NCBI GenBank assembly: GCA_028748975.1
Contig: JAQTPI010000002.1
Span: 51,213 to 115,212 of the forward strand
Reading direction: 5' to 3'
Source: Patescibacteria group bacterium
Lineage (GTDB): Bacteria; Patescibacteriota; Patescibacteriia; UBA2196
Length of the DNA: 64,000 bases
Shown: one piece after another, positions 4,988-52,821 of the stretch
Numbering within the stretch: the stretch's first letter is position 1
How the letters are laid out: the number at the start of each line of letters is the position of its first letter
Position numbers and translations under genes: made by a program
Notes under the pieces: generated by a model
Databases searched by the model: none
What the model was told of the DNA's origin: nothing
The model's input: only the letters and a program-made list of their open reading frames with translations

Positions 4988-5016
4988 TATAATAAAGTAA
5001 ATAATTGTGAATATCT

Positions 5017-9916: not shown

Positions 9917-9937
9917 TATTTTTTAGAAGGAGGAAAA

Positions 9938-32253: not shown

Positions 32254-32347
32254 ATGTCATTCCGAGCGAAGCCCGCTTCGACTGCGAAGCGAGGCGAGCG
32301 ATGGAATCTCTTATAGTTAAAAGACGAGATCCTTCCCCCGCATTTGC
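32254..32347. mobile_element. MITE-like element, gtcattccgag ... tcaggatgac
   Basis: Terminal inverted repeats. Overlaps the first in-frame ATG of the downstream PduL ORF. Confidence 0.55.
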
Positions 32348-32373
32348 GGGGTCAGGATGACACCACCATTAAT

Positions 32374-32964
32374 ATGAAAAACCAAAAAAGAACTATTATA
32401 TCGGTCGAAGTGTCGGCGCGGCACATCCACTTAAGCCAAAAAGATTTGGAAAAACTTTTTGGCCAGAAGTATAAATTGAATAAATTGCGCGACCTGTCGC
32501 AAAAAGGCGAATTTGCCAGTAAAGAAACGGTTTCCCTGGCTTCGCGTGTTAAGGGTTTTATTGATAAAGTTAGGGTTTTGGGCCCGGTGCGCAAGGAAAC
32601 GCAGGTGGAGCTGGCGCAAACAGACGTTATTAAATTGGGGATTGAGGCACCGCTCGCGGTTTCCGGCGATTTACAAAAAGTTAAACCGGTTTTGGAAGTG
32701 CGCGGGCCAAAAGGAAAAATTATGGCCAAGGCCATTGTGGCCAAACGGCATGTGCATTGTTCGCCAGCGGAAGCAAAAAAAATTGGTTTAAAAAACGGGC
32801 AAAAAGTTAAAATTGAAATAATGGGGGAGCGGGGATTGGTTTTTGACAACGTCGTGGTGCGCGTGGCGCCAAAAATGGTGATGTCTTGCCACATTGATAC
32901 GGATGAAGCCAATGCAGCCGGGCTTGGCAAAATTTGTGGAGTAGGAAAGTTAATTAGTTCTTAA
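32374..32964 (+). CDS. pduL: phosphate acyltransferase PduL-type (phosphotransacetylase)
   Basis: Two PduL repeats with ARHIHL / KRHVHC. Also RVLGPVRKETQVELAQTD and HIDTDEANAAGL, matching Salmonella PduL. Confidence 0.8.
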   Translation: MKNQKRTIISVEVSARHIHLSQKDLEKLFGQKYKLNKLRDLSQKGEFASKETVSLASRVKGFIDKVRVLGPVRKETQVELAQTDVIKLGIEAPLAVSGDLQKVKPVLEVRGPKGKIMAKAIVAKRHVHCSPAEAKKIGLKNGQKVKIEIMGERGLVFDNVVVRVAPKMVMSCHIDTDEANAAGLGKICGVGKLISS

Positions 32965-33189: not shown

Positions 33190-34311
33190 ATGGAAACATT
33201 ACTTGTTCTCAACCTTGGTTCCACTTCCTTCAAATACGAATTATTCAATGCGGAAGATTTGGCGACCATAAATAAAGGCCAGTATGACCTACAATTAACA
33301 ATTAATAGACAACAGACAACAGACAACAGACAACCGAGCGACGAACTACAGGAAGAAGTGGACAGACTTTTTCGCGAGGTTTTACGCCAAGCTGGTGATA
33401 TTAGCGAACTAATGGCGGTTGGCCACCGCGTGGTCCACGGCGGCGACAAATTTTTTGCCACGCAGAAAATTAAGGAAAATGAAATTACGGAATTGGAACA
33501 GCTGAATTCTTTGGCGCCGTTGCACAATCCTTTCAATCTTGCCGGCATCAAGGCGGCCTTTGGCTATCTGCCAGAGACGCCAAATTTCGCTGTTTTTGAC
33601 ACGGGCTTTTTTAAAGATTTGCCGGAAGCGGCTAAAGTTTACCCGATTCCATACGAATATTATGAAAAAGGAATTCATAAATTTGGCTTTCATGGCATTT
33701 CGCATAAATTCGCAGCGGAAGAAGCAGCCAAAGAAATTAATAAGCCTTTGGAAAAAATAAATGTCATCAGCGTGCACCTCGGCGGCGGCGCTTCTGTTTC
33801 CGCCACGCACCATGGCAAACCAATTGACACCTCCATGGGTTTTACGCCAATGGAAGGACTGATGATGGCGACGCGGCCGGGCGATTTAGATCCGGGGGTA
33901 ATAATACAGATGCTCACAGATTTATTACAGATGGACACAGATACACAGATAAATGACGCAAAAACAATTATAGAAAAAATAAATTATATCTTAAATTATG
34001 AATCCGGCGTTAAAGGCATTTGCGGGCAAACCGATTATCTGGAACTTTTAAAAGCCGCGACCTTTGACCCCAGAGCCAAACTGGCTTTTGATATGTTTAT
34101 TAACCGGATTAAAAAATATATCGGCGCCTATGCCGCTTTGCTTGGCGAAGTTGATGCCCTGGTTTTCACCGGCAAAATCGGCGCGGGCAAACCGGAGACA
34201 AGAAAAAAGATTTGTGATAAAATGGGTATACTTAAAGACGTGCCAGTAATAGTGGTGGAGCCGCACGAGGAGTTGGAAATAGCGAGAGAAATTGCAAGTA
34301 AAAACAGATAG
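33190..34311 (+). CDS. ackA: acetate kinase
   Basis: LVLNLGSTSFKYELF N-terminus. ASKHS-family motifs. Carries low-complexity inserts at 33291-33337 and 33905-33952. Confidence 0.85.
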   Translation: METLLVLNLGSTSFKYELFNAEDLATINKGQYDLQLTINRQQTTDNRQPSDELQEEVDRLFREVLRQAGDISELMAVGHRVVHGGDKFFATQKIKENEITELEQLNSLAPLHNPFNLAGIKAAFGYLPETPNFAVFDTGFFKDLPEAAKVYPIPYEYYEKGIHKFGFHGISHKFAAEEAAKEINKPLEKINVISVHLGGGASVSATHHGKPIDTSMGFTPMEGLMMATRPGDLDPGVIIQMLTDLLQMDTDTQINDAKTIIEKINYILNYESGVKGICGQTDYLELLKAATFDPRAKLAFDMFINRIKKYIGAYAALLGEVDALVFTGKIGAGKPETRKKICDKMGILKDVPVIVVEPHEELEIAREIASKNR

Positions 34312-34856: not shown

Positions 34857-36698
34857 ATGTTAAGTATCAAAATCGCCGGACCCGCGGGGTTCGGAATAAA
34901 AGTCACTGGTTCAATTTTAGCCAAGGTATTTTTACGCCTTGGATATTCTGTTTTTGCCTACACCGAATATCCGTCATTAATTCGTGGCGGGCATAACACT
35001 TTTCAAGTGGACGTTAATGGAGAATGTCATCCCGAGGACTCCGACATCACGTCGGAAGACGAGGGATCTCGTAAGTTTTCTGGTGTCAACTCTCCCAGCT
35101 CCAAAGTGGACATTCTCATCGCTTTGACAGGTGAAGCTATAGAAAAAGAAAAAGATAATTTAAAGAAAGACAGCCTGGTCATTTGTGATGATACATTAAA
35201 ACATGAAAGCATTAAAACATTAAAACAAAAGGGAACAAATATTATTGATATTCCCTTAATTGAATTCGCCAAAAAAAATGGCGGAGAATTAATGAAAAAT
35301 ACAGTCGCGCTTGGAGCTTTGTTTGCCATCATCGATAATGTCATTCCGAGGAGCGGGGCGACGAGGAATCTCGTCGAAACATTAAATAAAGTACTCGAAG
35401 ATACTTTTGGTCATAAGGGCGTCGTGGCAGAACAAAACGTAAAAGCAGCGGCAGAGGGCTACGAGTGGCTAAAAAACAATAAAGACAAAATAAAATCTAC
35501 GAGATCCCTCGTCATTCCGACTGCGGCCGGAACTCCTCGGGATGACATTTTACTGCTCATCTCTGGCAACCAGGCCTGCGCTCTCGGCGCCGTGGCCGCC
35601 GGCTGCCAACTCTATTCTGCCTACCCCATGACTCCGGCCACGGAAATTTTGCATTATTTGGAAGCCAAACAAAAAGAAACAAAAATGATTGTGCACCAGC
35701 CCGAAGATGAAATTGCCGCCATTCACGCCGCGCTGGGCGCTTCTTTTGCCGGCGCGAGATCCGCAGTAGGCACTTCTGGCGGCGGTTTTGCCTTAATGAC
35801 CGAGGGACTGTCCTTGGCAGGGCAATTAGAGCTTCCTTTGGTCATTTTTGAGGTTATGCGCCCGGCTCCGGCCACGGGACTACCCACCTGGACCGAACAA
35901 GGCGATTTATCTTTTGTCCTTAATGCCGGCCATGGTGATTTTGCCAGAGCAATTCTGGCTCCCGGCAATCCGGCTGAATGTTTTGAATTAACTCAAAAAG
36001 CCTTCAACCTCGCTGACCAGTTTCAAATTCCGGTTTTTGTCATGACTGATAAATTGCTTGGTGAATCATATTACACCACTGATGAAAAAATATTTAATAA
36101 TATTGAAAAAGTGAATCGGGGAAAAATTATTGGTAATCAGAAATTAGAAATCGGAAATCAGGGACTAAACGAATTATTTGCTCGCTACAAACTGGAAAAA
36201 GATGGCGTGTCACCGCGCACCATACCAGGTACTGAAGGCGGCGAATATGTTGCCAATTCTGATGAACACGATGAGTTTGGAATCTCCAGCGAAAGCGCGG
36301 AAATAAGAAAAGAACAAATGGACAAACGCCTGAAAAAACTGGCGGAATTGCAAAAAGAAATTCCTCTGCCGACTTTGTATGGCCCGAAAGACGCGAAGAC
36401 GACTTTGGTTTGCTGGGGTTCAATGCTGGGAGCTTGTTTGGATACATTAAAACATGAAAGCATTAAAGCATTAAAGCAAAATAACATAAACATCCTGCAT
36501 TTTTCCTATATTTATCCGCTGCCAATGGGATTAACGGAATTTTTAAAGAAATTTAATAATTTAGTGCTGGTGGAAAACAACGCCAGCGGCCACTTTGGCA
36601 AACTCTTGCGCCAAGAAACCGGCATAGAGATTAAAGATAAATTATTAAAGTATGATGGGAGACCTTTCTGGTCAGACGAGATAGCCAAACTTTTATAA
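34857..36698 (+). CDS. 2-oxoacid:ferredoxin oxidoreductase, fused gamma-alpha subunit (carries six in-frame repeat insertions)
   Basis: Gamma domain N-terminus (AGPAGFGIKVTGSIL) followed by alpha domain (GNQACALGAVAAGC...YPMTPATEIL). Inserts at 35035-35081, 35193-35229, 35339-35374, 35500-35547, 36131-36162 and 36443-36476. Confidence 0.8.
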   Translation: MLSIKIAGPAGFGIKVTGSILAKVFLRLGYSVFAYTEYPSLIRGGHNTFQVDVNGECHPEDSDITSEDEGSRKFSGVNSPSSKVDILIALTGEAIEKEKDNLKKDSLVICDDTLKHESIKTLKQKGTNIIDIPLIEFAKKNGGELMKNTVALGALFAIIDNVIPRSGATRNLVETLNKVLEDTFGHKGVVAEQNVKAAAEGYEWLKNNKDKIKSTRSLVIPTAAGTPRDDILLLISGNQACALGAVAAGCQLYSAYPMTPATEILHYLEAKQKETKMIVHQPEDEIAAIHAALGASFAGARSAVGTSGGGFALMTEGLSLAGQLELPLVIFEVMRPAPATGLPTWTEQGDLSFVLNAGHGDFARAILAPGNPAECFELTQKAFNLADQFQIPVFVMTDKLLGESYYTTDEKIFNNIEKVNRGKIIGNQKLEIGNQGLNELFARYKLEKDGVSPRTIPGTEGGEYVANSDEHDEFGISSESAEIRKEQMDKRLKKLAELQKEIPLPTLYGPKDAKTTLVCWGSMLGACLDTLKHESIKALKQNNINILHFSYIYPLPMGLTEFLKKFNNLVLVENNASGHFGKLLRQETGIEIKDKLLKYDGRPFWSDEIAKLL

Positions 36699-37063: not shown

Positions 37064-37387
37064 TTAATTGTTTTCGGAATTTTCGAAACCGAGCATTTTG
37101 CTGACGGTCTCGGCGATTCCTTTTTCCGCCCAGATCCCCACGCAGCCGGGCATTTCAAGATCTGGCCGGTGCGGGGCGTAAACTCGTACGTATTCAAGAA
37201 AGATTCCTTGAATGCCCCCTTGGCGCAGTGCCATGATTTGTTTTATAGTGTCTCCACCAACCCTGGCATTGCGCAGAAAGACAAAAGAAGCGCCCTCCAG
37301 AACATCTGTTCTGGGTTCTGGCCAAGGGTGACGGTGGCACAAGGGACAACCACCAGGTTTGCCTTCTTCTCGGCACTTTGGACACAT
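37064..37387 (-). CDS. hypothetical protein with N-terminal Cys4 zinc ribbon
   Basis: CPKC...CPLC. Confidence 0.35.
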   Translation of the reverse strand: MCPKCREEGKPGGCPLCHRHPWPEPRTDVLEGASFVFLRNARVGGDTIKQIMALRQGGIQGIFLEYVRVYAPHRPDLEMPGCVGIWAEKGIAETVSKMLGFENSENN

Positions 37388-37555
37388 ATACCCTCCTTAA
37401 AAGCGTTATTTGAGCTTATTTTTACCCTCTTTTTGGGGATAATATTAATTATAGCATATCTAAAAATTATTGTCAAGCGAGTTATCCACAAAAAAATGGC
37501 CGGACAACTGAATATTGTCCGGCCAAAGAGTAGTGCTTAAATTAGGATGCTTATT

Positions 37556-37771
37556 TCATCTTTTATTAATGATGGCTGAAATGTATGAAACATCAATGAA
37601 AAGACCGATAATCGTGACTATAATTAGGAGAGGAAGCCAGCTGCCTCCAATTATCACGCATAGATATATTACCAGAACGGTTCTTGGGAGAAAGAAAGCA
37701 ACAATTAACCAAAAACAGATTCCCCAAAAAGTAAACATAGTTTCCTCCTTCTTGTTTGTGTGAATGTTCAA
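37556..37771 (-). CDS. small membrane protein
   Basis: Two hydrophobic helices. Hairpin terminator at 37497-37523. Confidence 0.3.
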   Translation of the reverse strand: MNIHTNKKEETMFTFWGICFWLIVAFFLPRTVLVIYLCVIIGGSWLPLLIIVTIIGLFIDVSYISAIINKR

Positions 37772-37807
37772 TTTAATCTAAAATAACCCTATCATATCTA
37801 AAATTTT

Positions 37808-38161
37808 ATGTCAAACCCTAAAATAGTAAAAGACAAAATTAAATTGTTGGAAATTGAAGAAATGGCAAAAAATCGTTTTGGCAACCTGGTTAAGGCCGTG
37901 GTTGATGTGGAACAAAATTTAATGGCGCTGGATGCCGAAATGCATGTGGACGAAGAACAGTTGCTTTTGAGTTCCGGTTCCAAACAAGAAAATCTTTGGG
38001 GTATAAATTTGTATCCAGAATTTTTTGGCAGGCCGGATTTTGTGGAATTTGATTCCATGATTAATCTGCGTCCCAATCAAAACAATCGCAGTCGGGGAGT
38101 GGAGAGTGTGGAAGTACAAAAAAAGATTATTGAAATTGTAAATAATTTAATAGAAAAATAG
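37808..38161 (+). CDS. hypothetical protein
   Basis: 117-aa ORF. Its promoter region is duplicated at 43020-43065. Confidence 0.45.
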   Translation: MSNPKIVKDKIKLLEIEEMAKNRFGNLVKAVVDVEQNLMALDAEMHVDEEQLLLSSGSKQENLWGINLYPEFFGRPDFVEFDSMINLRPNQNNRSRGVESVEVQKKIIEIVNNLIEK

Positions 38162-38278: not shown

Positions 38279-38608
38279 ATGTCGCAACAACACAAACAAA
38301 TGGCCGCCGGCCGCTGGCTGGAATTTTCTTTAATGGAACAACTCGCCAACATCGGCAGTGAAATTGAACGCGCCATTAAATGGAAAAACAAAAATAATTT
38401 GCCTTATAGCCAAAGCGCTTTTGAAAGAGGATTGGAACTTTTGGATTTGACCGTGGCTGATGAAAAAAACAAAACCCGCCTGAAAGAATTATTGCGCCTA
38501 AGAGAAATGCTCGCTGATTATTTTTTCTTTAATAATGAATATAAAACAGATGACCAAAGCTGGCAAAAATATTTTTACGCCTTCAACTACGCCGCGAGAA
38601 ATAAATAA
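38279..38608 (+). CDS. hypothetical protein
   Basis: Start moved past the P-family repeat to MSQQHKQ. Confidence 0.4.
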   Translation: MSQQHKQMAAGRWLEFSLMEQLANIGSEIERAIKWKNKNNLPYSQSAFERGLELLDLTVADEKNKTRLKELLRLREMLADYFFFNNEYKTDDQSWQKYFYAFNYAARNK

Positions 38609-38615
38609 AAAAAAT

Positions 38616-38641
38616 CGGCTGGCCAGATGGCTGGCCAGCCG
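38616..38641 (-). terminator. terminator hairpin cggctggccagatggctggccagccg
   Basis: T-run on the minus strand. The same hairpin recurs at 41984-42010 and 42694-42720. Confidence 0.6.
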
Positions 38642-38650
38642 AAAGATGAA

Positions 38651-38998
38651 TTAAAACCCAAGGAGTTGTAATGTTAACTTTGCAGCATCTTCCTTTTCGT
38701 CCACTTTATGGGTTGCCCCGTGGGCCAGTAATTCGTCATTAGAACGGGGCGTACCGGAAGAGGCGATAATGATTTTTAAACCAGATCGTGATAGTTTTTC
38801 TACAAAAGGGACGGTGCTCAGTGTTTCATTGTTGATACAGGCGTCTATAATCGCCGCGGCGATGTTAAGGTTTTCTTCAAAAAAGTGATTACACTCATAC
38901 ACCCTGGTAAATCTAACGACTTCAACCTTGCCAGAAAGTATTTTGTTAATCTTTTCGAAGTAAACATCTTCATCTTCTACAACTAGTACCTTTTTCAT
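38651..38998 (-). CDS. stand-alone receiver (REC)-like domain protein, paralogue 1
   Basis: KVLVVEDED acidic pocket. IIDAC (phospho-Asp position). IIASSG and HKVDK. 115 aa. Confidence 0.45.
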   Translation of the reverse strand: MKKVLVVEDEDVYFEKINKILSGKVEVVRFTRVYECNHFFEENLNIAAAIIDACINNETLSTVPFVEKLSRSGLKIIIASSGTPRSNDELLAHGATHKVDEKEDAAKLTLQLLGF

Positions 38999-39051
38999 CC
39001 TATTTTCCTCCTTGGTTTTTATAGGTTAATAAATTATTTGATTAATAAATA

Positions 39052-39080
39052 AGTATAGCACAATTAAAATTTTCTGTCAA
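39052..39080 (-). promoter_or_regulatory. minus-strand promoter ttgaca-17-tatact for REC paralogue 1
   Basis: Read on the reverse complement. About 90 percent identical to 42436-42464. Confidence 0.5.
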
Positions 39081-39157
39081 ACCGTGGTGAAAATAGAAAC
39101 TCGTTAACCCGTTAACTCGTTAATAAAATAATAATTAATTTTTTATATATTAAATCT

Positions 39158-41776
39158 ATGAGCGAACAAAAGCAATTCGTCTTCTCCTTTGAGGAAGGCA
39201 ACGCCAAAATGAAAGAAACTCTCGGCGGCAAGGGCGCCTATTTGGCCGAGATGACCCAATTTGGAATTCCGGTTCCGCCGGGCTTCACCATTTCAACCGA
39301 AGTGTGTGATTTGTATTACAAAAACAATCAAAAACATTCGGAAGAAATAATTAATCAAATTAACGCCAACCTTAAAAAGTTGGAAGAAAAAACCGGCAAA
39401 ACTTTAGGCGAGGCTATTGATCCTCTTTTGGTTTCCGTCCGCTCCGGCGCCGCGGTTTCCATGCCTGGCATGATGGACACGGTTTTAAACTTGGGCCTAA
39501 ACGACGAATCGGTGGCGGGTCTTGCAAAAAAAACTGGCAATGAACGCTTTGCCTGGGATTCCTATCGCCGTTTCATCCAGATGTTTGGCAGCGTGGTCAT
39601 GGGCTTGGAACATAATAAATTTGAAACCGAGCTTGATGCCATTAAACATAAAAATAATTTACTCGTGGACACTGATTTGGAAGCTCCGCATTTGAAAGAA
39701 TTGGTCGCCAATTACAAAACATTAATTCAAAAAGAAACCGGCAAGCTTTTTCCGAGTGATCCGCGCGAACAATTGCAAATGTCAATTGACGCTGTGTTTC
39801 GTTCCTGGAACAACGACCGCGCCATAACCTATCGCCGGCTAAATAACATCAAGGGACTCCTCGGCACTGCCGTCAATGTCCAGGCCATGGTTTTTGGCAA
39901 TTTGGGCGAAACCTCCGGCACCGGCGTTTGCTTTACCAGAAATCCGGCCACGGGCGAGAAAAAATTATATGGCGAATTCTTAATGAACGCGCAAGGCGAA
40001 GACGTGGTGGCGGGCATCCGCACCCCTCGGCCAATTGAAGAATTAAAGAGTATCATGCCCGACTGCTATAATCAGTTTGATAAAATTTATCATCAACTGG
40101 AAAATGATTATAAGGACATGCAGGATATGGAATTCACCATTCAAGAAGGAAAATTATACATTCTCCAAACCAGAAACGGCAAACGCACAGCCGCGGCTTC
40201 GGTTAAAATCGCGGTGGACATGGTTAAAGAAAATTTAATTGATGAAAAAACCGCCATCAAACGCGTTCTCGCCAATCAACTTGATCAATTGTTGCATAAA
40301 CAACTTGATCCGGTGGCCAAAAAAACAGCGGAAGTCTTAACCAAGGGTTTACCGGCGAGTCCCGGCGCCGCGGTGGGCCAGGCAGTATTTTCCGCCAAGA
40401 TGGCGCATGACTGGAACGCTGAAGGCAAAAAAGTTGTGCTAGTGCGCGCGGAAACTTCACCAGAAGACATTGAAGGCATGCACGCGGCCCAAGGAATTCT
40501 AACAGCGCGCGGCGGCATGACTTCTCACGCCGCAGTGGTGGCGCGCGGTATGGGCAAATGCTGCGTGGCCGGCGCCGGCGATGTCAAAATTAATGAACAT
40601 GAAAATTATTTTACTGTCGGCTCAATCAGAATCAATGAAGGCGATGTCATAACTTTGGACGGCTCCACTGGCGAAGTTTTTGCCAAGGCTTTGGGCGTGG
40701 TTGACCCCGAACTTTCCAACGACTTTAATGAACTCATGATTTGGGCCGATAAATACCGGAAACTGGGCGTGCGCACCAATGCCGACACTCCGCATGACGC
40801 TGAAGTGGCGCGCAAATTTGGCGCCGAAGGCATCGGCCTTTGCCGCACCGAACATATGTTTTTTAATGGCGACCGCATCAAAGCCGTGCGCGAAATGATT
40901 TTGGCGGACGATGTTGACGGCCGCAAACGCGCGCTTAAAAAACTCCTGCCATATCAAAAAGATGATTTTATTGGTTTATTTAAAGCCATGGACGGCTACA
41001 GCGTTACCATTAGATTATTAGATCCGCCGCTTCACGAATTTTTGCCGCAAACCGAAGAGGAAATTTTGGAATTGGCAGGCGAAATGAATGTCACGGTGGA
41101 ACACATCAAAAACAGAATTGAAGATTTAAGAGAATTCAATCCGATGCTAGGCCACCGCGGCTGCAGTGTGGTTGTGACTTATCCCGAAATTGCTGAAATG
41201 CAAACCGAGGCCATAATTTCCGCTGCCTGCGAACTCGCTAAAACCGGACAAAAAATCGTGCCGGAAATTATGATTCCATTGGTTGGTTTGAAACAGGAAT
41301 TGGATTTCAATGCCGAGATTGTCAGGCGCGTGGCGGAAGAAACCATGGAAAAATTCGGCGTGGAATTGGATTATAAAATTGGCACCATGATCGAAGTGCC
41401 TCGCGGCGCCTTGATTGCCGATAAACTGGCCGAAACCGCGGAATTTTTCTCTTTTGGCACCAATGATTTAACACAGATGGGTTTTGGATTTTCGCGCGAT
41501 GACGCTGGTAAATTTATTAAAGAATATCTGGCCAAAGGTTTATTTGAACATGATCCTTTTCAAACTTTGGACACTGAAGGTATTGGACAATTGATTAAAA
41601 TGGCAACAGAGTTGGGAAGAGCGACTCGCCCTGAAATCAAACTTGGCATTTGCGGCGAACACGGCGGCGACCCGGAATCCATCAAATTCTGCCACGCTGT
41701 TGGTTTGAATTATGTCAGTTGTTCTCCCTTCCGTGTGCCCATCGCCCGCCTCGTCGCCGCGCAGGCAGCTTTGTAA
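39158..41776 (+). CDS. ppdK: pyruvate, phosphate dikinase
   Basis: PEP-utilising enzyme motifs. Phospho-His region GGMTSHAAVVARG. Length 872 aa. Confidence 0.92.
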   Translation: MSEQKQFVFSFEEGNAKMKETLGGKGAYLAEMTQFGIPVPPGFTISTEVCDLYYKNNQKHSEEIINQINANLKKLEEKTGKTLGEAIDPLLVSVRSGAAVSMPGMMDTVLNLGLNDESVAGLAKKTGNERFAWDSYRRFIQMFGSVVMGLEHNKFETELDAIKHKNNLLVDTDLEAPHLKELVANYKTLIQKETGKLFPSDPREQLQMSIDAVFRSWNNDRAITYRRLNNIKGLLGTAVNVQAMVFGNLGETSGTGVCFTRNPATGEKKLYGEFLMNAQGEDVVAGIRTPRPIEELKSIMPDCYNQFDKIYHQLENDYKDMQDMEFTIQEGKLYILQTRNGKRTAAASVKIAVDMVKENLIDEKTAIKRVLANQLDQLLHKQLDPVAKKTAEVLTKGLPASPGAAVGQAVFSAKMAHDWNAEGKKVVLVRAETSPEDIEGMHAAQGILTARGGMTSHAAVVARGMGKCCVAGAGDVKINEHENYFTVGSIRINEGDVITLDGSTGEVFAKALGVVDPELSNDFNELMIWADKYRKLGVRTNADTPHDAEVARKFGAEGIGLCRTEHMFFNGDRIKAVREMILADDVDGRKRALKKLLPYQKDDFIGLFKAMDGYSVTIRLLDPPLHEFLPQTEEEILELAGEMNVTVEHIKNRIEDLREFNPMLGHRGCSVVVTYPEIAEMQTEAIISAACELAKTGQKIVPEIMIPLVGLKQELDFNAEIVRRVAEETMEKFGVELDYKIGTMIEVPRGALIADKLAETAEFFSFGTNDLTQMGFGFSRDDAGKFIKEYLAKGLFEHDPFQTLDTEGIGQLIKMATELGRATRPEIKLGICGEHGGDPESIKFCHAVGLNYVSCSPFRVPIARLVAAQAAL

Positions 41777-41983
41777 GCCAGAGTAATGTCATCCCGAGGA
41801 GTAGCAACGACGAGGGATCTCGCGGTTATCCTCCCCTTTCGAAGGGGAGGTGGTCCGATGTCGCATCGGACCAGAGGGGTTGTAATGTAGCGACGACAAC
41901 CACCCCGGCCGATTGCTATCGGCCACCCCTCCTTCGAAAGGAGGGGATAGCGACCGCCTAGTTAAAAAATAAATAAAAAAAAT

Positions 41984-42010
41984 CGGCCAACCAGATTTGC
42001 TGGCCAGCCG
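41984..42010 (-). terminator. terminator hairpin copy 2
   Basis: cggccaaccagatttgctggccagccg. Confidence 0.55.
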
Positions 42011-42019
42011 AAAGATGAA

Positions 42020-42382
42020 TTAAAACCCAAGAAATTGCAGTGCTAATTTCACCGCCTTGTATTTGTCCGCTTTGTGCGTCGCGCCGGCAGTGATTAATTC
42101 ATCGTTGTTTAAGGAAGAACCGGAAGCAGCGATGATTGGCTTTTTAAATCCGGATTTGACAATTTTTTCGATGAGCGGCATGGAATCTGGTTCGTCGCCT
42201 TCCACACAAGCGTCCATGATAATCACTTCAACGTCAGGATTGGCAAAAAAGAGATTTTCTCCTTCTTTCAACGTCTTGGCATGAAGAATTTCAATTTCAC
42301 TGTTCTTGTCGTGAAATTTGAATACTCGCTCCATTGGCGAAAAATCACTGTCCCTGTCTTCCACCACCAATACCTTTTTCAC
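42020..42382 (-). CDS. stand-alone receiver (REC)-like domain protein, paralogue 2 (GTG start)
   Basis: N-terminal MKKVLVVED and C-terminal LQFLGF conserved with paralogue 1. Middle region diverged. Confidence 0.45.
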   Translation of the reverse strand: MKKVLVVEDRDSDFSPMERVFKFHDKNSEIEILHAKTLKEGENLFFANPDVEVIIMDACVEGDEPDSMPLIEKIVKSGFKKPIIAASGSSLNNDELITAGATHKADKYKAVKLALQFLGF

Positions 42383-42435
42383 TTAATTTTCCTCCTTGGT
42401 TTTTATGGGTTAATAAATTATTTGATTAATAAATA

Positions 42436-42464
42436 AGTATAGCATAACTAAAATTTTCTGTCAA
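42436..42464 (-). promoter_or_regulatory. minus-strand promoter ttgaca-17-tatact for REC paralogue 2
   Basis: Near-identical to 39052-39080. Confidence 0.5.
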
Positions 42465-42470
42465 TTAGTT

Positions 42471-42683
42471 TGTCATCCCGGGCCGTGACCCGGCCTGCCT
42501 GCCCGCTTCGCAACGAGGCGAGCCGGCGAGGCAGGGATCCAATAGTTTGTCATTCCGACCGACCTCTATGGCCGCTTTGAGTGGAGGAATTCCTCCGTCG
42601 TCGTAAAACCACGAAGGGATCCTTCGACTTCGGCCTCTCCGCCAGCTGGCGGAGAGGCCTCCGCTCAGGATGACAAAAAATAA
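42471..42683. mobile_element. composite MITE-like elements (gtcatcccgg ... ctcaggatgac)
   Basis: Two nested units, each with terminal inverted repeats. Confidence 0.55.
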
Positions 42684-42730
42684 TAAAAAAAATCGGCTGG
42701 CCAGATTGGCTGGCCAGCCGAAAGGATTCT

Positions 42731-42961
42731 TTAAAGATTGATCGACACCTCTTGTTTTTCGGGGTTGTATGTGGTGTATCGCAGAACATCTCTTTTGAGT
42801 TCGGCTGACAATACTCCGTTTTCAAGTAAGCCCCGTTCTTCTAGTAGTCGTCTCATTTTTTCTGATATGACATAAGTGTCATCATTGCTTTTTCTTACCA
42901 AGACATGCAGAATTGCTGGTGTTTCATACACCATTCCAGCGAAATCTTTTTTCGTTAACAT
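42731..42961 (-). CDS. hypothetical protein (76 aa from an internal start)
   Basis: Same terminator hairpin (42694-42720). Promoter related to 37775-37815. Confidence 0.35.
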   Translation of the reverse strand: MLTKKDFAGMVYETPAILHVLVRKSNDDTYVISEKMRRLLEERGLLENGVLSAELKRDVLRYTTYNPEKQEVSINL

Positions 42962-43130
42962 GTTACCCCCCTCTTTTTGTCGTTTGCCCGTTCTTGGGCG
43001 GTTGTAAAAATGAACTATTTTATATAAAATAACCCTATCATATCTAAAATTTTTTGTCAAACCATTCGCTATCCAGTCTGTCATTTTTCACTTTTCATTA
43101 TTCATTTTTCATTATTTATAATACAAACCT

Positions 43131-44003
43131 ATGCCAACTCAAACAAAGCAAACAACCCCAGTCGAAGCCTATAACACCCAAGCCAAACCGACGTGGTGCC
43201 CCGGCTGCGGCGATTTTGGAATTTGGATGGGAATCAAAAGCGCCCTGAGCGAATTAAACCTGCCACCGCACATGGTCGCAATCGTCTATGGCATCGGCTG
43301 CGCCGGCAACATGGCCTCCACCCTGAAATGCTACGGCTTTCATTCTCTTCACGGCCGAACCCTGCCCGTCGCCACCGGCATCAAACTCGCCAATCCCAAG
43401 CTCGCGGTTTTGACCGTGGCCGGCGACGGCGATTTCTATGGCGAAGGCGGCAATCATTTTCTCCACGCCGCGCGCTATAATTCTGACATCAATGCCATTG
43501 TTTGTGACAACCGCCTGTTTTCTCTGACCACGGGCCAGGCCTCGCCAACTTCCGCGGTCGGCATGATTTCCAAAACCACTCCTTTTGGCGAAATCAAAGA
43601 ACCCCTAAATCCCGTGGCTTTAGCAATTATTGCCGGCGCGACTTTTGTGGCGCGCGTGCCGGCTTTTGATCCGGCGCTCCTTAAAGAGACGATCAAACAA
43701 GCCATCAATCACAAAGGTTTTGCTTTGATTAATGTTTTGCAGCAATGCGTCACTTTCAACAAAACCAACACTGTGGAATGGTATAAAGAAAGAATTTATA
43801 ATCTGAATGATGCCAAGCATGATATTAATAATAAAGAGCAAGCACTCGCCAAAGCTTTGGAAACCGAAAAAATTCCAGTCGGAGTTTTCTATAAAGTTGA
43901 AAGGCCAAGTTATGAAGAAAAGTTAGACCTGTCTCCCGCCGCCTCCGCCAAAGACGAAAAAATAGTTTTCCCTTGGGCAGAGTTAAAGAAAGAATTTATT
44001 TAG
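43131..44003 (+). CDS. 2-oxoacid:ferredoxin oxidoreductase beta subunit (TPP-binding)
   Basis: CPGCGDFG Fe-S / TPP region. GDGD TPP-binding motif. Confidence 0.85.
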   Translation: MPTQTKQTTPVEAYNTQAKPTWCPGCGDFGIWMGIKSALSELNLPPHMVAIVYGIGCAGNMASTLKCYGFHSLHGRTLPVATGIKLANPKLAVLTVAGDGDFYGEGGNHFLHAARYNSDINAIVCDNRLFSLTTGQASPTSAVGMISKTTPFGEIKEPLNPVALAIIAGATFVARVPAFDPALLKETIKQAINHKGFALINVLQQCVTFNKTNTVEWYKERIYNLNDAKHDINNKEQALAKALETEKIPVGVFYKVERPSYEEKLDLSPAASAKDEKIVFPWAELKKEFI

Positions 44004-44311
44004 TTAGTCATCCCCTCCTTTTCAAGGAGGGGCAAGGGGTGGTTATTTATTTCGCCGTTAGGCGCGTCGTTTCCCCCCTCTCCTTAACAAGGAGAGGTCG
44101 GGGTGAGGTAGATCGCCAATAGGCGCATCTAATTATGTCATCCCCGCCTTAGGCGGAAATTTGGAAAAACTCGCCCAACCAGCGGGTTTTGTTTTTAGAA
44201 GTATGATTTTTTATGGAACCATTCGCGCGAATGGGTAAATGGATTTTTTTCTAAAATAAAAAAAATCCCCGTCCCAAGTTTTTCCAGGGGCGGGGAAGAT
44301 CATTTTTGTGA

Positions 44312-44713
44312 CTATTTGTGGATGCAAACCATCCGAGTATTGGCAGAAAAATTATAATGAAGAAAGGAGAAGATTAAATTCCATCTCCAGTCATTAGTGC
44401 AAATCCATTTTAAAGTCGGGATGAGCAGATTTCCGTTCGGAGCGCGCCACACCGTGCCAGGAAAGATCAGTTCAAAATCTTGCCATTCTTGGGGAATTTC
44501 TTCCCTTCGTTTTTGTCCAATGCTAAAAAGTTGATTAATGAGTTGGTTAAGAAGCAGGCGTTCGGCATGAAGCTGGCCCGCGGAGTTCATTTTCTTGGCG
44601 TATTTCAGCAAGGTTGGTCCAAAAATATTGCCATTGCCAATCATTCCATCACAGCGGGAAAGATCATCCAACTCAAGAGAAATTTCGCCTTTTTCCAAAG
44701 CGACATTTTCCAA
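44312..44713 (-). CDS. hypothetical protein
   Basis: Minus-strand terminator at 44250-44290. May be the C-terminal part of a gene disrupted at 44714-44772. Confidence 0.35.
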   Translation of the reverse strand: MENVALEKGEISLELDDLSRCDGMIGNGNIFGPTLLKYAKKMNSAGQLHAERLLLNQLINQLFSIGQKRREEIPQEWQDFELIFPGTVWRAPNGNLLIPTLKWICTNDWRWNLIFSFLHYNFSANTRMVCIHK

Positions 44714-45268: not shown

Positions 45269-45442
45269 AATTGTGAGCGAACTGGGTATTGTTTTATCTT
45301 ATACCCAATCCCGAGGGTTTGTCAAATGGTTTTTCTTTTTGGCTTTCATGGACTTATTCGCGCGAATGGGTAAATGGATTTTTTTCTAAAATAAAAAAAT
45401 CCCCGCGAATTTTTGTTCGCGGGGTGTTTGTTTCAGATGTGT

Positions 45443-45874
45443 TTAGTTGGCAGGCACTTTGACCGGCACCGCTTTCCAGGGACTGATGCGATAGTATGCC
45501 TTCATGGTGAAATATTTTACCAGGCGTTCATGTTTGTGCAAAAACCAGTGGGCGCCTTTTTCTTCCAGGTGGTAGCCTTCGGTTTCGGGGCATATCGGCG
45601 TTTTCAGAAGCGCCAGCCCGGCTGTTTTTTCTGGATTCGGGTCATTTTGGCCCTGTATTTTTGTACCGACCCATTTGGAAAGGTTTTCCCACTGTTCCAA
45701 AACAGTGTACGTTTCATAGCCAGGCAGGGCGATGTGTTTGGCCACACAAAGCGTTTTTTGACCGTTTATCACTTGGTAGCCGTGCCGTTGGTAGGTGTTG
45801 AGGGCGATATAGACACCGATTGAGAGCAGGAACAGATAACCCAGAATAAACAACACTGTTGGTTTTGTCAGCAT
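45443..45874 (-). CDS. membrane-anchored hypothetical protein
   Basis: N-terminal transmembrane helix. Terminator at 45395-45425 shares a 50-nt module with 44190-44260. Confidence 0.4.
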   Translation of the reverse strand: MLTKPTVLFILGYLFLLSIGVYIALNTYQRHGYQVINGQKTLCVAKHIALPGYETYTVLEQWENLSKWVGTKIQGQNDPNPEKTAGLALLKTPICPETEGYHLEEKGAHWFLHKHERLVKYFTMKAYYRISPWKAVPVKVPAN

Positions 45875-46523: not shown

Positions 46524-47978
46524 ATGGATAAACAAAAACAAAAAAACTTAGGTGCTTTTTATACTCCCGTCAGCGCCGTAGAGTATATGGTTAGTAAACT
46601 GACTGGTTTTTGTGATAAAAGTAAATTATTAGAACCAAGCGGTGGTGATGGAGCTTTTGTTTCTGTAATTTTAAAGAGGGGATTACTAAAATCGGAACAA
46701 ATTACGGTTTGGGATATCAATCCGGAGGTTAAAAATTATATTGAAAATTTGGGCATAAAAAATATAGTAATAAAAGACACGCTTTTATCAACCAATTTTG
46801 CCAGTAATTCTCTCTTTAGAGGAGAATTATTTTCTCATATTATTGGCAACCCTCCGTATTTAAACAAACAAAGTGCTTATATAAAAAAGAATAAACACAG
46901 ATTAGGAGATCTTTTTAAAGAAATCGGTGCTAATGATACCTATGCCATGTTTTTATATTTAGGTTGTAAATTACTAGAAGAAAATGGCGAACTCTGTTTT
47001 ATTATCAGCGACACCTATTTGACTTTAGGAATTCATAAAAAGTTAAGAAAATTTTTATTAAAAAATTATACCATTAATGAAATCACGCTTTGTTCCAAAA
47101 AATTATTTAGAGATAGTGGTGCTTTGGTTAATACAAGTATAATTTATTTAACCAACAAAAAATCATCCGATAGCCACAAAATAATTTTTAATGATTGTCG
47201 AGAAAACGAAGCCGATAACTATATTGGTAAAAAATTTAAAACTATACAAAAAAATATTTTATCATACCCCGATTATGTTTTTGATTTTAATGGTGGGGCA
47301 AAATTACTTGGTAAAATAAACGAACTTAAAAAAATGGTAAGTCTTTTAGATGGTGGTCTAGGAATGCACACGACAGATAATAATGAATTTTTAGCCATTG
47401 TTGATTATGGTGGAAAAAAATATGCTAGCAATAATGGTATAAACAAGATTGTTTCTGCAACAGATATTGATGGGAAAAAATGGAAATTTTATCATAAAAA
47501 GGGTGGTAATAATAAATATTATCTACCGACCGAATATGCCATTCGTTGGGACAAAGAAGCGGTTTCTCACTACAAAATGCCTAAAAATTACGACATTGAT
47601 ATTAAAAGAATAGGATTTGTTGTTTCCGGCATTTGTTCAAACCTAACAGCCAGACTATCAACGCCCGGTGCTCTTTGGGAAAGCAATAAGGCTATGTGTT
47701 TTTTCCCAAAAGACCCTCAAAAATATCCGCCAGAACTTTTTGTCGGCGTTTTAAATAGTGATATTTATAACAAAATGATAAAGTTATTAAATCATACCAA
47801 TTCTTTACAAATTAGAGATATTAAAAAGTTACCCTGGCCTGATTTTACCAATGAAGATGTAAACAAAATAATAACAATCTCTAAAAATATAATTGCCAAA
47901 ATTAAAGAAAACATGGATTATAGTTTCAACGGAGAACAGGAAAAAATTAATCAAATTGTTAATAATTATTTTTTATAG
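46524..47978 (+). CDS. gamma-class N6-adenine DNA methyltransferase (TaqI/Eco57I-like)
   Basis: GAFYTP (motif X). EPSGGDGAF (motif I). NPPY (motif IV). C-terminal TRD-sized extension. Confidence 0.75.
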   Translation: MDKQKQKNLGAFYTPVSAVEYMVSKLTGFCDKSKLLEPSGGDGAFVSVILKRGLLKSEQITVWDINPEVKNYIENLGIKNIVIKDTLLSTNFASNSLFRGELFSHIIGNPPYLNKQSAYIKKNKHRLGDLFKEIGANDTYAMFLYLGCKLLEENGELCFIISDTYLTLGIHKKLRKFLLKNYTINEITLCSKKLFRDSGALVNTSIIYLTNKKSSDSHKIIFNDCRENEADNYIGKKFKTIQKNILSYPDYVFDFNGGAKLLGKINELKKMVSLLDGGLGMHTTDNNEFLAIVDYGGKKYASNNGINKIVSATDIDGKKWKFYHKKGGNNKYYLPTEYAIRWDKEAVSHYKMPKNYDIDIKRIGFVVSGICSNLTARLSTPGALWESNKAMCFFPKDPQKYPPELFVGVLNSDIYNKMIKLLNHTNSLQIRDIKKLPWPDFTNEDVNKIITISKNIIAKIKENMDYSFNGEQEKINQIVNNYFL

Positions 47979-47982
47979 AATT

Positions 47983-48864
47983 ATGAAAAACAGAAAAGTA
48001 AAATCAAATAGAGCCCAAGCCGATTATTTTGAGTTATTAGTTTGTCAATATATTTGCCACTTGTATAATGTCACATTTTCTTACAGTCAAGATTTGGCCA
48101 AGCTATCAAACAAGATCCTTGTTTTACCGGATGGCAAAGCGAGATTAAAACTACAAAATGATAATTTTATAAAAATACAGCCCAAAATCAAAGAGATTTT
48201 AGATTTTGAAATAGGTCAAAAAGGAAAAGTAATAAGCGTGGTTTGGGTTGGTAGAAATCTTTTAATTGAAACGACCTCCGATGTTGACGCCGAACACATT
48301 AATAAGCAAAAAACAAGGTTTTCCATTAAATCAATAGCCAGCACCGGCACTGGTACATTGAAAAATTTGGGTGCAAGACAAATCAAAAAATTTTTAGGAA
48401 TTGATTTTTCACGACAATATAACGAAATGTGGCGAAAACTAAGAGATCATTTAAAGGATTTTGATTTATCACAATCAAGACTGAAAAAGAAAGTGCAAAA
48501 AAATAAAAAATTATTGAAGTGGGCGACAGAAAACGGAAAAAAATATCAAACGAAATTAAATGAATTATGTCTTAATTCTTTTAATAAACTTTCTTTAAAG
48601 GAAAAGATTAATTTTCTTAATTATATTACTGACTGCAATGACGAGGATTTATATGTTATTATTGTAAATTCTGTCGACGTTATAATTTATAAACCGGTAG
48701 ATAAAAAATTAAAAATTATAAAGAATATAAAGGCCAAAAAAAATAATATGGCAGGTGCTGGTTACACAATTTATATTGACGATAAACCAACTTATCGCGT
48801 CCAAACCAACAACACAAATGGAATCGGCATCAGCGCTTATTGTCAAAGAATTTTCTGGATTTAA
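47983..48864 (+). CDS. hypothetical protein, candidate cognate restriction endonuclease
   Basis: Starts 5 nt after the MTase stop. No recognised motif. Assignment by position only. Confidence 0.3.
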   Translation: MKNRKVKSNRAQADYFELLVCQYICHLYNVTFSYSQDLAKLSNKILVLPDGKARLKLQNDNFIKIQPKIKEILDFEIGQKGKVISVVWVGRNLLIETTSDVDAEHINKQKTRFSIKSIASTGTGTLKNLGARQIKKFLGIDFSRQYNEMWRKLRDHLKDFDLSQSRLKKKVQKNKKLLKWATENGKKYQTKLNELCLNSFNKLSLKEKINFLNYITDCNDEDLYVIIVNSVDVIIYKPVDKKLKIIKNIKAKKNNMAGAGYTIYIDDKPTYRVQTNNTNGIGISAYCQRIFWI

Positions 48865-48961
48865 TTGAAAAGACGAATAAAGAAATTGACGAAAAAGTCT
48901 ATGGCTTTTACGGCCTGACGGAGGAGGAAATAAAAATTATAGAAATTAATAAATAGATAAT

Positions 48962-49828
48962 ATGAACAGTGAAGAATTTAAAAATCTCTATTCAATGCAA
49001 AGTTTGGATGAATCAATTACGCCGTTTACAAACAATGTTGGCTTTTCATTAATTCGCAAATATCCTGAAAATACAACCTATTTTAAAGACGGAAGAATGA
49101 TGTTTATTAAAGTTGCCATACTTGATGGAGGATTTTTTTACGGAGTGGATATGACTAAACCCGAAAAAAGAGGAGGAACAACCGATTATGTTATTGTTGA
49201 CGGAGAAGAATATAAGAAAAAAATTACAAATTTTTTTTCAAATGATAACGAATTTATATTTGATAATACGACTCAAAAAATAATTTATCAGCCGACAAAC
49301 AAAAGTTTTACGATGAACAAGTTTGTAGAAATTTTAGTAGCAAACCATCTTTCAGACAGACTATTCTTGAAGCGTATCTGGAACGAACTTGCTGATAGAA
49401 TTTTAAAATTTTTATTTTGGCTGTCAGATGCCCATTATGAACGAGCTCAGGTGATGATTGATAAATACGATTATGATAGGGGTGAAATTTTACCCCCAAA
49501 AGATGAAAAGAAAAATATTGAACCATTTTTTAAATATTTTTATATTTCAAAAAATATTTTGTTTTCAATTTTATTAATAACCTTTCCATCCGCCTTTTTT
49601 CTCGGTATTTATTGGGTACGCGGAGATTTTTCATTATCAAACCCAACTTTAGTTTTACTATTTTTTTTAATTTTATTTACATGCGAGAAATTGTCTATCT
49701 GGTTAGATAAAAAAATAAAAAAATTCCTTATACCACCAAAAGATCTCTTTACCGAGAAAAAAATAAACTTTATAGAAAAACTACACAATTATCAGTATCG
49801 AAACAATTTTCAGCTTAAAATAAACTAA
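48962..49828 (+). CDS. hypothetical protein with two C-terminal transmembrane helices
   Basis: Soluble N-terminal domain and hydrophobic C-terminus. Confidence 0.4.
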   Translation: MNSEEFKNLYSMQSLDESITPFTNNVGFSLIRKYPENTTYFKDGRMMFIKVAILDGGFFYGVDMTKPEKRGGTTDYVIVDGEEYKKKITNFFSNDNEFIFDNTTQKIIYQPTNKSFTMNKFVEILVANHLSDRLFLKRIWNELADRILKFLFWLSDAHYERAQVMIDKYDYDRGEILPPKDEKKNIEPFFKYFYISKNILFSILLITFPSAFFLGIYWVRGDFSLSNPTLVLLFFLILFTCEKLSIWLDKKIKKFLIPPKDLFTEKKINFIEKLHNYQYRNNFQLKIN

Positions 49829-49890
49829 TTTATTTTAAAATTTTATTGGATGCTAAAGTTTTCAAAAAATAAAAATTTAAACAAGAAATT

Positions 49891-50559
49891 ATGAACGAAA
49901 AAATATATTATCATTTTTTATCTTCAAAAAATGCAATTGATGATCTTGAGCAAAAAAGAATAAAAATTAGTTTAATAGATGAATTGAACGATCCATTTGA
50001 ATTATTGCCATATCTAAGATATAAAGAAGCTAAAAAAAGAAAAACCTATCACAACATTCGTAAAATAGTTTCAAAAAAATATGGTCTCCTGTGTTTTTCA
50101 AAAAAATGGGAGGAACCGCTTTTATGGGGGCACTATGCTGATAAACATCGGGGAATAGCAATAGGTTTTGAAATTTTAAAAGATAAAATATTGAGAGTAA
50201 AATATAATACTGTACCAAAAAGAATAGAATTTGAACTGACAAAAAATCAAGAAAAAAATATAAAATTATTTCTTGATTTGGCTAAAACAAAATATAAAGT
50301 ATGGTCATATGAAGAGGAATACAGAATATTAGTAGAACTTAATAATCGTAATGATGGTCATTATTTCATTCAGTTTGGAGATAGACTAAAAGTAAAAGAA
50401 ATAGTTTTGGGCTGTAATTTTGATAAAAAAAAGTACAAGAAGATAAAAAAATTAGCAAATCGATTACACGCCAAAGTTATACCAACTAGACAAGGCTGGG
50501 AAGATTACAAAATACGCCAATGTGGAACGAAAACTAAAGAATTTCAAAATATAAAATAA
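49891..50559 (+). CDS. DUF2971-like protein
   Basis: YHFLS...LNDPFE motif recalled as characteristic of DUF2971. Confidence 0.45.
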   Translation: MNEKIYYHFLSSKNAIDDLEQKRIKISLIDELNDPFELLPYLRYKEAKKRKTYHNIRKIVSKKYGLLCFSKKWEEPLLWGHYADKHRGIAIGFEILKDKILRVKYNTVPKRIEFELTKNQEKNIKLFLDLAKTKYKVWSYEEEYRILVELNNRNDGHYFIQFGDRLKVKEIVLGCNFDKKKYKKIKKLANRLHAKVIPTRQGWEDYKIRQCGTKTKEFQNIK

Positions 50560-50757
50560 TTTCCTCCGCCGCGCCGCGGAAAAAAACGGAGCAGAAAAAC
50601 GGAGCAGGGGATTGTCAAATTTAAAAATCAAAACCCCAAACCCTAATCCTTGGTTAATTTAGCTATAGCTAATTTAACCAAGGATTGAAAAACAGTAAAA
50701 TTAATAATGTTTGATTAATTCTGCTATAGCAAATTTAATCAAAGATTGAAAAAATAA
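50560..50757. repeat. Intergenic module R1 with 36-bp near-perfect palindrome (50648-50683) and second palindrome (50710-50744)
   Basis: tttcctccgccgcgccgcgg leader. ccttggttaatttagctatagctaatttaaccaagg. tttgattaattctgctatagcaaatttaatcaaag. Confidence 0.7.
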
Positions 50758-52011: not shown

Positions 52012-52098
52012 CCCTATTGCTTTTCTAAGTTGACTAACCATCATTTTTTTTATTCCCGGTTTAGTGCTAAAATTAAACCATCATAACCACCACAAAAA

Positions 52099-52285
52099 TT
52101 TCCTCCGCCGCGCCGCGGAAAAAAACGGAGCAGAAAAAACAGAGCAGGGGATTAAAAAAATTAAAATAATTAAATCCCCAAATCCTTGGTTAATTTAGCT
52201 ATAGCTAATTTAACCAAGGATTGAAAAACAGTAAAATTAATAATGTTTGATTAAATTTGCTATAGCAGAATTAATCAAACATTAA
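52099..52285. repeat. Intergenic module R2 (palindromes at 52184-52219 and 52244-52280)
   Basis: Same leader and palindromes as R1. Confidence 0.7.
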
Positions 52286-52345
52286 AAATAACATAAAAAA
52301 ATCATATTCTCTAATTCGCGCGAATAGGCGAATAGTTAAAAAAAC

Positions 52346-52684: not shown

Positions 52685-52687
52685 GTA

Positions 52688-52812
52688 TTTCCTCCGCTGC
52701 GGCGCGGCGCAAAAAAACGAAAAAAAAACGGAGCAGGGGACTAAAAAAATTAAAATAATCCAAAACCCTAATCCTTGGTTAATTTAGCTATAGCTAAATT
52801 AACCAAGGATTT
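52688..52812. repeat. Intergenic module R3 (perfect 36-bp palindrome 52773-52808)
   Basis: ccttggttaatttagctatagctaaattaaccaagg. Confidence 0.7.
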
Positions 52813-52821
52813 AAAAAATAT

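Follow-up and report, generated by a model that had tools for sequence, protein, structure and literature searches.

Paralogous genes in bacteria can evolve in concert through ectopic gene conversion, as the tufA/tufB pair and the rRNA operons do. Both the reuse of regulatory sequences and orphan single-domain receivers are known phenomena. Highly similar promoter regions of 50–100 nucleotides (nt), conserved from ~5 nt before the start codon and averaging 92% identity between pairs, are found across prokaryotes; such regions count as putative mobile promoters when two starts in one genome have, within ~150 nt upstream, a stretch of ≥50 nt that is ≥80% identical (Matus-Garcia, Nijveen and van Passel 2012, PMC3488235). 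Here we describe one more example, in a 64-kb stretch of DNA from a Patescibacteria group bacterium (GCA_028748975.1, contig JAQTPI010000002.1, positions 51,213–115,212 of the forward strand). This stretch, analysed over its whole length, is called the window, and coordinates are counted from its first letter. It carries two genes for stand-alone receiver (REC) proteins, denoted A and B, whose non-coding ends are nearly identical and whose coding sequences are strongly diverged. An earlier note on this DNA had placed these REC-only genes on the minus strand, framing the gene for pyruvate phosphate dikinase (ppdK). Its coordinates, strands and lengths for both genes are correct, and A and B indeed lie on either side of ppdK. 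The features at issue are as follows.

38651-38998, minus strand: gene A, single-domain REC protein of 115 amino acids (aa), ATG start (PHT40_01220, MDD5289805.1)
42020-42382, minus strand: gene B, single-domain REC protein of 120 aa, GTG start (PHT40_01230, MDD5289807.1)
39158-41776, plus strand: ppdK, putative pyruvate phosphate dikinase of 872 aa, named from sequence motifs
39002-39080, minus strand: gene A promoter-leader block, with −35 hexamer TTGACA at 39075-39080, 17-nt spacer and extended −10 element TGcTATACT
42386-42464, minus strand: gene B promoter-leader block, built like that of gene A
38599-38650, minus strand: gene A intrinsic terminator block, hairpin 38615-38642 followed by T8 (−25.1 kcal/mol, z −7.1)
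41967-42019, minus strand: gene B intrinsic terminator block, hairpin 41983-42011 followed by T8 (−18.9 kcal/mol, z −4.7)

Genes A and B are each monocistronic, with one transcription unit per gene, and ppdK sits between the direct-repeat blocks, divergent to gene A and convergent to gene B. The upstream blocks are identical at 76 of 79 nt (96%; blastn E 2e-33). This identity begins exactly at the −35 TTGACA, upstream of which A and B have no similarity, and ends 3 nt short of the start codon. The leader of ~45 nt is AT-rich and unstructured, folding no better than shuffled sequence (z −0.2), and leads to an AAGGAGG Shine–Dalgarno motif 8 nt ahead of the start codon; the gene A promoter, which carries the TG motif, scores 11/12 in a promoter scan. 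Transcription is predicted to begin ~7 nt past TATACT. The downstream blocks, each made up of a hairpin with a 12-bp stem and a T-run, agree at 48 of 53 nt (91%; E 7e-11). Shuffles of the window gave no matches comparable to this flank identity, and 76 matches in 79 would arise with P ~7e-29 at the identity rate of third codon positions. Neither inverted repeats nor target duplications were found at the block ends (−35 hexamer and T-run). A riboswitch or structured leader RNA was rejected on the shuffled-level folding together with the Rfam search over 36.5–44.5 kb, which placed no family on the flanks; its lone sub-threshold match, to CyaR at 37492-37571, is off target. Two further elements were seen in this divergent promoter region. 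Three tandem 8-mers at 39100-39125, between the gene A −35 hexamer and the ppdK start, read TTAACGAG TTAACGGG TTAACGAG on the minus strand and may be a binding site for a regulator. Within the conserved upstream block, a weak promoter-like match on the reverse strand (39042-39070) faces ppdK.

By comparison with these flanks, the coding sequences of A and B are far apart. The proteins are 40% identical (BLASTP, E 3e-28) and the genes share 55% of their nucleotides, with third codon positions 37% identical against a random expectation of ~34% for this base composition. The Nei–Gojobori method gives a nonsynonymous divergence (dN) of 0.48 and a proportion of synonymous differences (pS) of 0.80, which is saturated; in codons 2–9, which encode identical residues and lie beside the 96%-identical leader, pS reaches 0.94. 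At the start codon (within 3 nt) and at the stop codon (within ~12 nt), 96% identity gives way abruptly to saturation. DNA alignment, in which divergence is not uniform, thus bears out that the flanks, put at ~90% identity in the earlier note, are conserved where the coding sequence is diverged. That note had also described proteins with identical ends and a strongly diverged middle. The ends are indeed shared (MKKVLVVED at the N-terminus, LQxLGF at the C-terminus), whereas divergence of the remainder is uneven, with ~18% identity in α1–β3 and ~64% in the C-terminal third. Because MKKVLVVED and a C-terminal LLG motif are kept throughout the family, the identical protein termini reflect family constraint and not conversion tracts.

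Relatives in other genomes allow the A/B split to be placed in time. In pairwise comparisons, gene B is 51–57% identical to homologues of other genomes and 43% to gene A, while gene A is 43–46% identical to these homologues and no closer to gene B. A neighbour-joining tree places B within the clade of other-genome homologues and A outside it. Since B is nearer to the homologues of other genomes than to A, the A/B split dates back at least to the divergence of B from its homologues in other organisms.

The flanks tell a different history. We compared 21 homologue loci (L001–L006 and L033–L047), in which the genes stand alone with their own, unrelated promoters and terminators; a blastn-short search of these loci with the A and B flanks returned no match. 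Paired copies do not occur among them, all being single copies save for one fused two-domain open reading frame (ORF) in L038. There, two family modules are joined head to tail at 10001-10705 in one ORF of 264 aa (MKKVLIVED...LLESL-KKVLIVEDD...VLGL), so tandem duplication does occur in this REC family. In L005, a ~75-nt repeat at 9925-10000 and 10400-10480 lies ahead of the REC homologue and of the next, unrelated gene; it comprises the hairpin GGGAGGCAAGATCTCGCCTCCC and the leader GCATTTTCAAAGCTTGTCACC.TTGGGGTGGC.GGTTGTGACTGATGCG and represents another shared 5′ module. Because the other-genome homologues carry unrelated flanks, the flanks common to A and B appear to have arisen within this lineage. 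Judged by these comparisons, the flanks are far younger than the coding sequences, which are old. The history of the tracts conflicts with that of their surroundings, the flanks being 4–9% diverged where synonymous sites are saturated, and the shared flanks are not accounted for by joint descent with the genes themselves.

We conclude that the non-coding ends of A and B, on balance, probably owe their near-identity to copying or homogenisation inside the genome. Promoter and terminator would have been propagated by ectopic gene conversion, or by recombination of short direct repeats that lie close to one another. Gene conversion limited to the ends, as the earlier note had put it, is compatible with this reading as far as the flanks are concerned and does not extend to the protein termini. 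With the same strong predicted sigma-70-type extended −10 promoter, the same leader, the same AAGGAGG spacing and a strong terminator, A and B would be expressed together and at matched levels.

The sharing of modules goes beyond the receiver pair. Large genes in the window sit almost without exception on the plus strand; those on the minus strand are small throughout and for the most part orphans. Three of these small units, denoted U1, U2 and U5, are relevant to A and B; counted within the 64 kb, there are two copies of the promoter-leader block and three of the terminator.

42682-42724, minus strand: third terminator copy, downstream of U5, hairpin 42693-42721 (−25 kcal/mol)
42731-42958, minus strand: U5, orphan ORF (PHT40_01235)
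43025-43063, minus strand: U5 promoter, identical at 38 of 39 nt to the U2 promoter region 37779-37817, the coding sequences being unrelated
37448-37476 (promoter) and 37064-37387 (coding sequence), minus strand: U1, promoter of the TTGACA-nAAAATTTTAGATATG-nTAnnnT type
37786-37814 (promoter) and 37556-37738 (coding sequence), minus strand: U2, promoter of the TTGACA-nAAAATTTTAGATATG-nTAnnnT type

The third terminator matches that of gene A at 42 of 43 nt and is thereby closer to it than the gene B terminator is (48/53). U5 itself has no homologues that we could find and does not match the hidden Markov model (HMM) of the REC family, and on these grounds we rejected the idea that it is a degenerate REC cassette. 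The match between the U2 and U5 promoters sits in a 62-nt stretch at 85% identity. Unlike A and B, U1 and U2 have leaders and terminators of their own. A 29-nt promoter is common to the five minus-strand units at 37.0–43.1 kb (U1, U2, A, B and U5; 21–28 of 29 positions), its spacer contains the palindrome AAAATTTT, and every other site in the 64 kb differs from it by more than three mismatches. In a search for further cassette copies, a degenerate promoter scan of a species-representative genome collection gave 26 single, scattered matches in unrelated genomes. As proof of copying, this family of five promoters is weakened, since promoters close to consensus, some of their spacers being partly similar, also occur at other places in the window and in other genomes. 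Copying of non-coding modules is nevertheless favoured, because modules are shared with non-homologous genes. Function does not demand this particular flank sequence, since U1 and U2 differ, the leader is unstructured and no Rfam family is present.

Shared intergenic sequence was also observed further along the window. A module of ~130–190 nt with 64–94% identity occurs at 50562-50752, 52098-52288 and 52687-52817, upstream of three non-homologous plus-strand genes that encode an S24/LexA-like peptidase, a membrane protein and an MliC/DUF333 protein. Within it are two related palindromes, one of them 34 nt long and near-perfect (CCTTGGTTAATTTAGCTATAGCTAATTTAACCAAGG), which may be operators. In addition, a 3′ flank of ~55 nt (GGGGATTTTTTTATTTTAGAAAAAAATCCATTTACCCATTCGCGCGAATGG), 90% identical between 44209-44269 and 45344-45404, is common to the non-homologous minus-strand ORFs 44312-44713 and 45443-45874, the terminator stems of which differ.

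Compared with mobile promoters (PMC3488235), the A/B match of 76/79 nt lies within the length and identity range used to define them, and likewise no transposase and no terminal repeats are attached to the blocks. However, mobile promoters are defined by non-homologous coding sequences, and A and B are homologous; non-homologous coding sequences are found for the U2/U5 promoter pair and for the A/U5 terminator. At this locus, moreover, the terminator is shared as well, and every copy falls on a single strand and inside a span of 6 kb. The resemblance to gene conversion between paralogues consists in short near-identical tracts within diverged duplicated DNA, in direct orientation and a few kb apart. 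Classical gene conversion homogenises coding sequence, whereas here only non-coding ends are affected and one module is also found on a non-homologous unit. It is conceivable, if quite improbable, that the near-identical modules at 37.0–43.1 kb (U1, U2, A, B, U5) act as natural ‘standard parts’, which would double as expression signals and recombination arms. Small accessory genes (receiver variants and orphan ORFs, for instance) would in this way be exchanged, added or co-regulated in a reduced Patescibacteria genome without a dedicated recombinase, and the modules, being direct repeats on either side of ppdK, might also allow changes in its copy number.

An alternative that we regard as unlikely is an old duplication of the whole cassette, with flanks held since then by strong purifying selection through a common sequence-specific regulator (a spacer operator, a leader-binding factor or a small RNA). 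Several observations weigh against copying, and some of them speak for such constraint. The block edges coincide with functional edges (−35 hexamer, Shine–Dalgarno motif, stop codon and T-run), and functional selection would produce the same limits. The three differences between the gene B and gene A terminator stems all form compensatory G–U pairs in the minus-strand RNA, showing purifying selection at work. The palindrome AAAATTTT recurs in the promoter spacers of five neighbouring minus-strand units, and a similar promoter (35/39) is present in another Patescibacteria metagenome-assembled genome (MAG; L032), so that part of the upstream identity may represent a shared consensus. Copying is further weakened in that U5 is an orphan and a putative coding ORF, that copies were counted within a single 64-kb window, and that the closest homologues are at most 57% identical. 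Yet under constraint almost every one of 79 nt, those of an unstructured leader included, would have had to stay unchanged over a time in which synonymous sites became saturated. These flanks are missing from the gene B homologues of other genomes. A terminator works by structure and not by sequence, and U1 and U2 use other terminators; the gene A terminator, finally, is nearer to that of U5 than to that of gene B.

Similarly doubtful is a recent duplication of the full cassette after which one coding sequence was swapped for a divergent allele, the flanks serving as recombination arms in horizontal allelic exchange or cassette swapping. Such a swap would account for the sharp switch in identity at the start and stop codons and for the position of gene A as an orphan long branch among 1.84 billion representative sequences. 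However, it requires a donor in which these flanks enclose a 40%-identical gene, and none emerged from protein, metagenome, genome, viral, phage or plasmid searches, and the terminator of U5 and the other shared modules are left unexplained.

The earlier note had proposed cassette duplication followed by diversifying selection, and we consider a recent event of this kind, with positive selection on the coding middle, very improbable. It draws on the pairing of conserved flanks with diverged coding sequence and on the focus of divergence on α1–β3, the partner-specificity surface. The saturation of synonymous sites, even in codons of identical residues, contradicts it, because positive selection on a protein cannot raise synonymous divergence; so does the finding that B has nearer homologues in other genomes and that, seen from gene A, B is no nearer than these. 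The dN/dS calculation that the note had called for yields an undefined ratio, pS being above the saturation limit, and shows no sign of positive selection. Lastly, although the source is a MAG, an assembly or binning artefact in which a collapsed or chimeric repeat mimics flank identity can hardly be the explanation, as the flank copies differ by specific substitutions and one indel, lie in unique contexts of one contiguous stretch, and are accompanied by a third terminator copy and many repeat families that assembled without breaks.

Candidate mobile elements were rejected. No recombinase domain was found by a Pfam scan of ~45 window ORFs and no terminal inverted repeats are present at the block ends, which speaks against an integron-type or transposon-borne cassette. 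A phage, defence or plasmid origin was dismissed after PHROG and PADLOC gave no hits, blastn against phages and plasmids gave no match, and the leader and terminator patterns found no exact counterpart in viral contigs.

Assignment of A and B to the REC family rests on profile and model comparisons. Neither protein matches Pfam PF00072, even at E ≤ 1, whereas 12 of 14 aligned family members match it at E ≤ 0.1 (best 1.5e-8). Against the PDB, the family profile retrieves CheY-like receivers (E ~6e-6), and in the profile alignment the invariant Asp of the family is paired with the phospho-acceptor of a CheY homologue (‘liimDac’ versus ‘vlitDWn’). AlphaFold2 predicts a (β/α)5 fold of five β–α units for both proteins, with pLDDT values of 95.7 for gene B and 95.4 for gene A. 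Foldseek searches of the PDB returned almost exclusively receiver domains among the top 50 matches for each (TM 0.66–0.80), the best being the VicR, PhoP and DivK receivers for A and the Sln1, Spo0F, PhoP and CheY receivers for B. The acidic pair E8-D9 and D57 (B)/D52 (A), an Asp directly after predicted β3, are invariant in the family. S87 (B)/S81 (A), after β4, and K107 (B)/K102 (A) are also family-invariant and near the expected positions; the invariant Lys lies 2–3 residues past a short predicted β5 and is not followed by Pro. The profile, the models and the presence of the pocket residues agree with the REC fold and Asp pocket suggested in the earlier note, and they indicate that A and B are remote but genuine REC homologues.

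Relatives of the two proteins come from metagenomes. Gene B has 12 relatives at 42–54% identity, found in metagenomes only, most of which match PF00072 weakly. A search with gene A among 1.84 billion representatives retrieved 151 clusters at E ≤ 0.001, mostly of ~115–125 aa; its best match was gene B, at 43%. Gene A is thus a divergent long branch of the family without a close relative. The family is one of stand-alone CheY-like receivers typical of Patescibacteria, and A and B are ancient paralogues within it.

In response regulators, α1 is the main kinase-docking and specificity helix. The divergence of A and B in α1–β3, on the partner-docking side, would fit different phospho-donors or insulation from cross-talk. 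Because the phospho-acceptor Asp and the pocket residues are kept, A and B are probably phosphorylatable single-domain response regulators, which by their domain content would act via protein–protein contacts, as orphan regulators often do (PMC8995066). Like the orphan single-domain regulators CheY, DivK and Spo0F and McvR/VemR of Xanthomonas (PMC8995066, PMC9923393), they consist of a ~120-aa REC domain with no output domain, keep the acidic pocket and phospho-acceptor Asp, with an invariant Ser and Lys near the expected positions, and have no adjacent kinase. Unlike CheY, DivK and Spo0F, they belong to a divergent, metagenome-only family with the motifs IIMDACVPG and GATHExxK, their pocket opens with E-D instead of D-D, no Pro follows the Lys, and both fall below the Pfam threshold. 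Chemotaxis, phosphorelay or cell-cycle partners were not found near A or B. A classical two-component operon has an adjacent cognate histidine kinase; for A and B there is none in the window, where the Pfam scan of ~45 ORFs detected no histidine kinase, in line with the earlier note. Nor is there a histidine kinase within 10 kb of the L001 and L005 homologues.

The genes around A and B make up a route from pyruvate through acetyl-CoA and acetyl phosphate to acetate, and include the following.

32344-32964: PduL-type phosphotransacylase
33190-34311: acetate kinase (AckA)
34857-36698: gamma/alpha chain of pyruvate:ferredoxin oxidoreductase (POR; porGA)
43131-44003: beta chain of POR

The POR genes are split, with the gamma/alpha and beta genes 6.4 kb apart; the gap holds the five small minus-strand units, a DUF5674 gene, an ORF of 128 aa and ppdK. 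Just upstream of porGA are the genes for the PduL-type phosphotransacylase and acetate kinase and a gene of the PD-(D/E)XK nuclease family. Acetyl phosphate phosphorylates some response regulators without a kinase (PMC12471899). We speculate that the phospho-donor of A and B could be an unlinked kinase, or else acetyl phosphate from the neighbouring phosphotransacylase and acetate kinase. Searches by tblastn with PduL, AckA, PorGA, PorB, PpdK and the small ORFs gave no hits in the 21 homologue loci, and linkage to ppdK or acetyl phosphate is therefore not a family trait. With these metabolic genes near none of the 21 homologues (0/21), a role as acetyl-phosphate-responsive regulators is a reasonable yet weak hypothesis.

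Other repeats were noted in the window. Short AT-rich repeats lie in frame inside essential genes, namely in the ORFs for SecA (25492-25576, 25705-25783 and 26087-26129), AckA (33290-33332) and PorGA (35183-35261 and 36434-36512), and also in intergenic DNA (4944-5001 and 19140-19205). In SecA, a 21-nt tandem repeat gives rise to three copies of TTDNKQL; AckA contains ‘QQTTDNRQ’. An element with an 8-nt period (ATGTTTTAATGCTTTCATG) occurs in the intergenic DNA ahead of the GH1 and mreC genes, and its reverse complement specifies ‘ESIKALKHE’ or ‘KHESIKxLKQ’ at one site in SecA and at two in PorGA. These in-frame repeats of SecA, AckA and PorGA resemble insertions of Rickettsia palindromic elements. 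A family of GC-rich hairpins, GTCATCCCGAG...CGAGGGATC(TCG), often arrayed with CCCCTCCTTCGAAAGGAGGGG-type hairpins, populates intergenic spacers (12928, 13044, 17522, 41788-41960, 42472-42670, 44007, 44137, 58307 and 58985) and fills those on both sides of gene B. One copy is in frame in porGA at 35026-35075, where it encodes ‘HPEDSDITSEDEGSRK’. Two regions of the window may be mobile or defence islands: the first ORF (1-1950) matches type IV secretion coupling-protein and HerA-like ATPase families, and, in the region 46524-50559, an Eco57I-type N6 methylase stands at the start of an AT-rich stretch (GC content 0.23–0.33, 46.4–50 kb) of ORFs without a Pfam match.

A paralogue pair in which ends and coding sequence differ in age cautions against taking ‘conserved flanks, diverged middle’ as a sign of diversifying selection. 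The 79-nt and 53-nt direct repeats around ppdK could serve as substrates for deleting or amplifying that gene, and a metagenome-only family of orphan single-domain receivers is brought to attention. With this locus, the Patescibacteria, which have tiny genomes and few regulators, join the organisms in which reuse of promoters and terminators may replace dedicated regulation.

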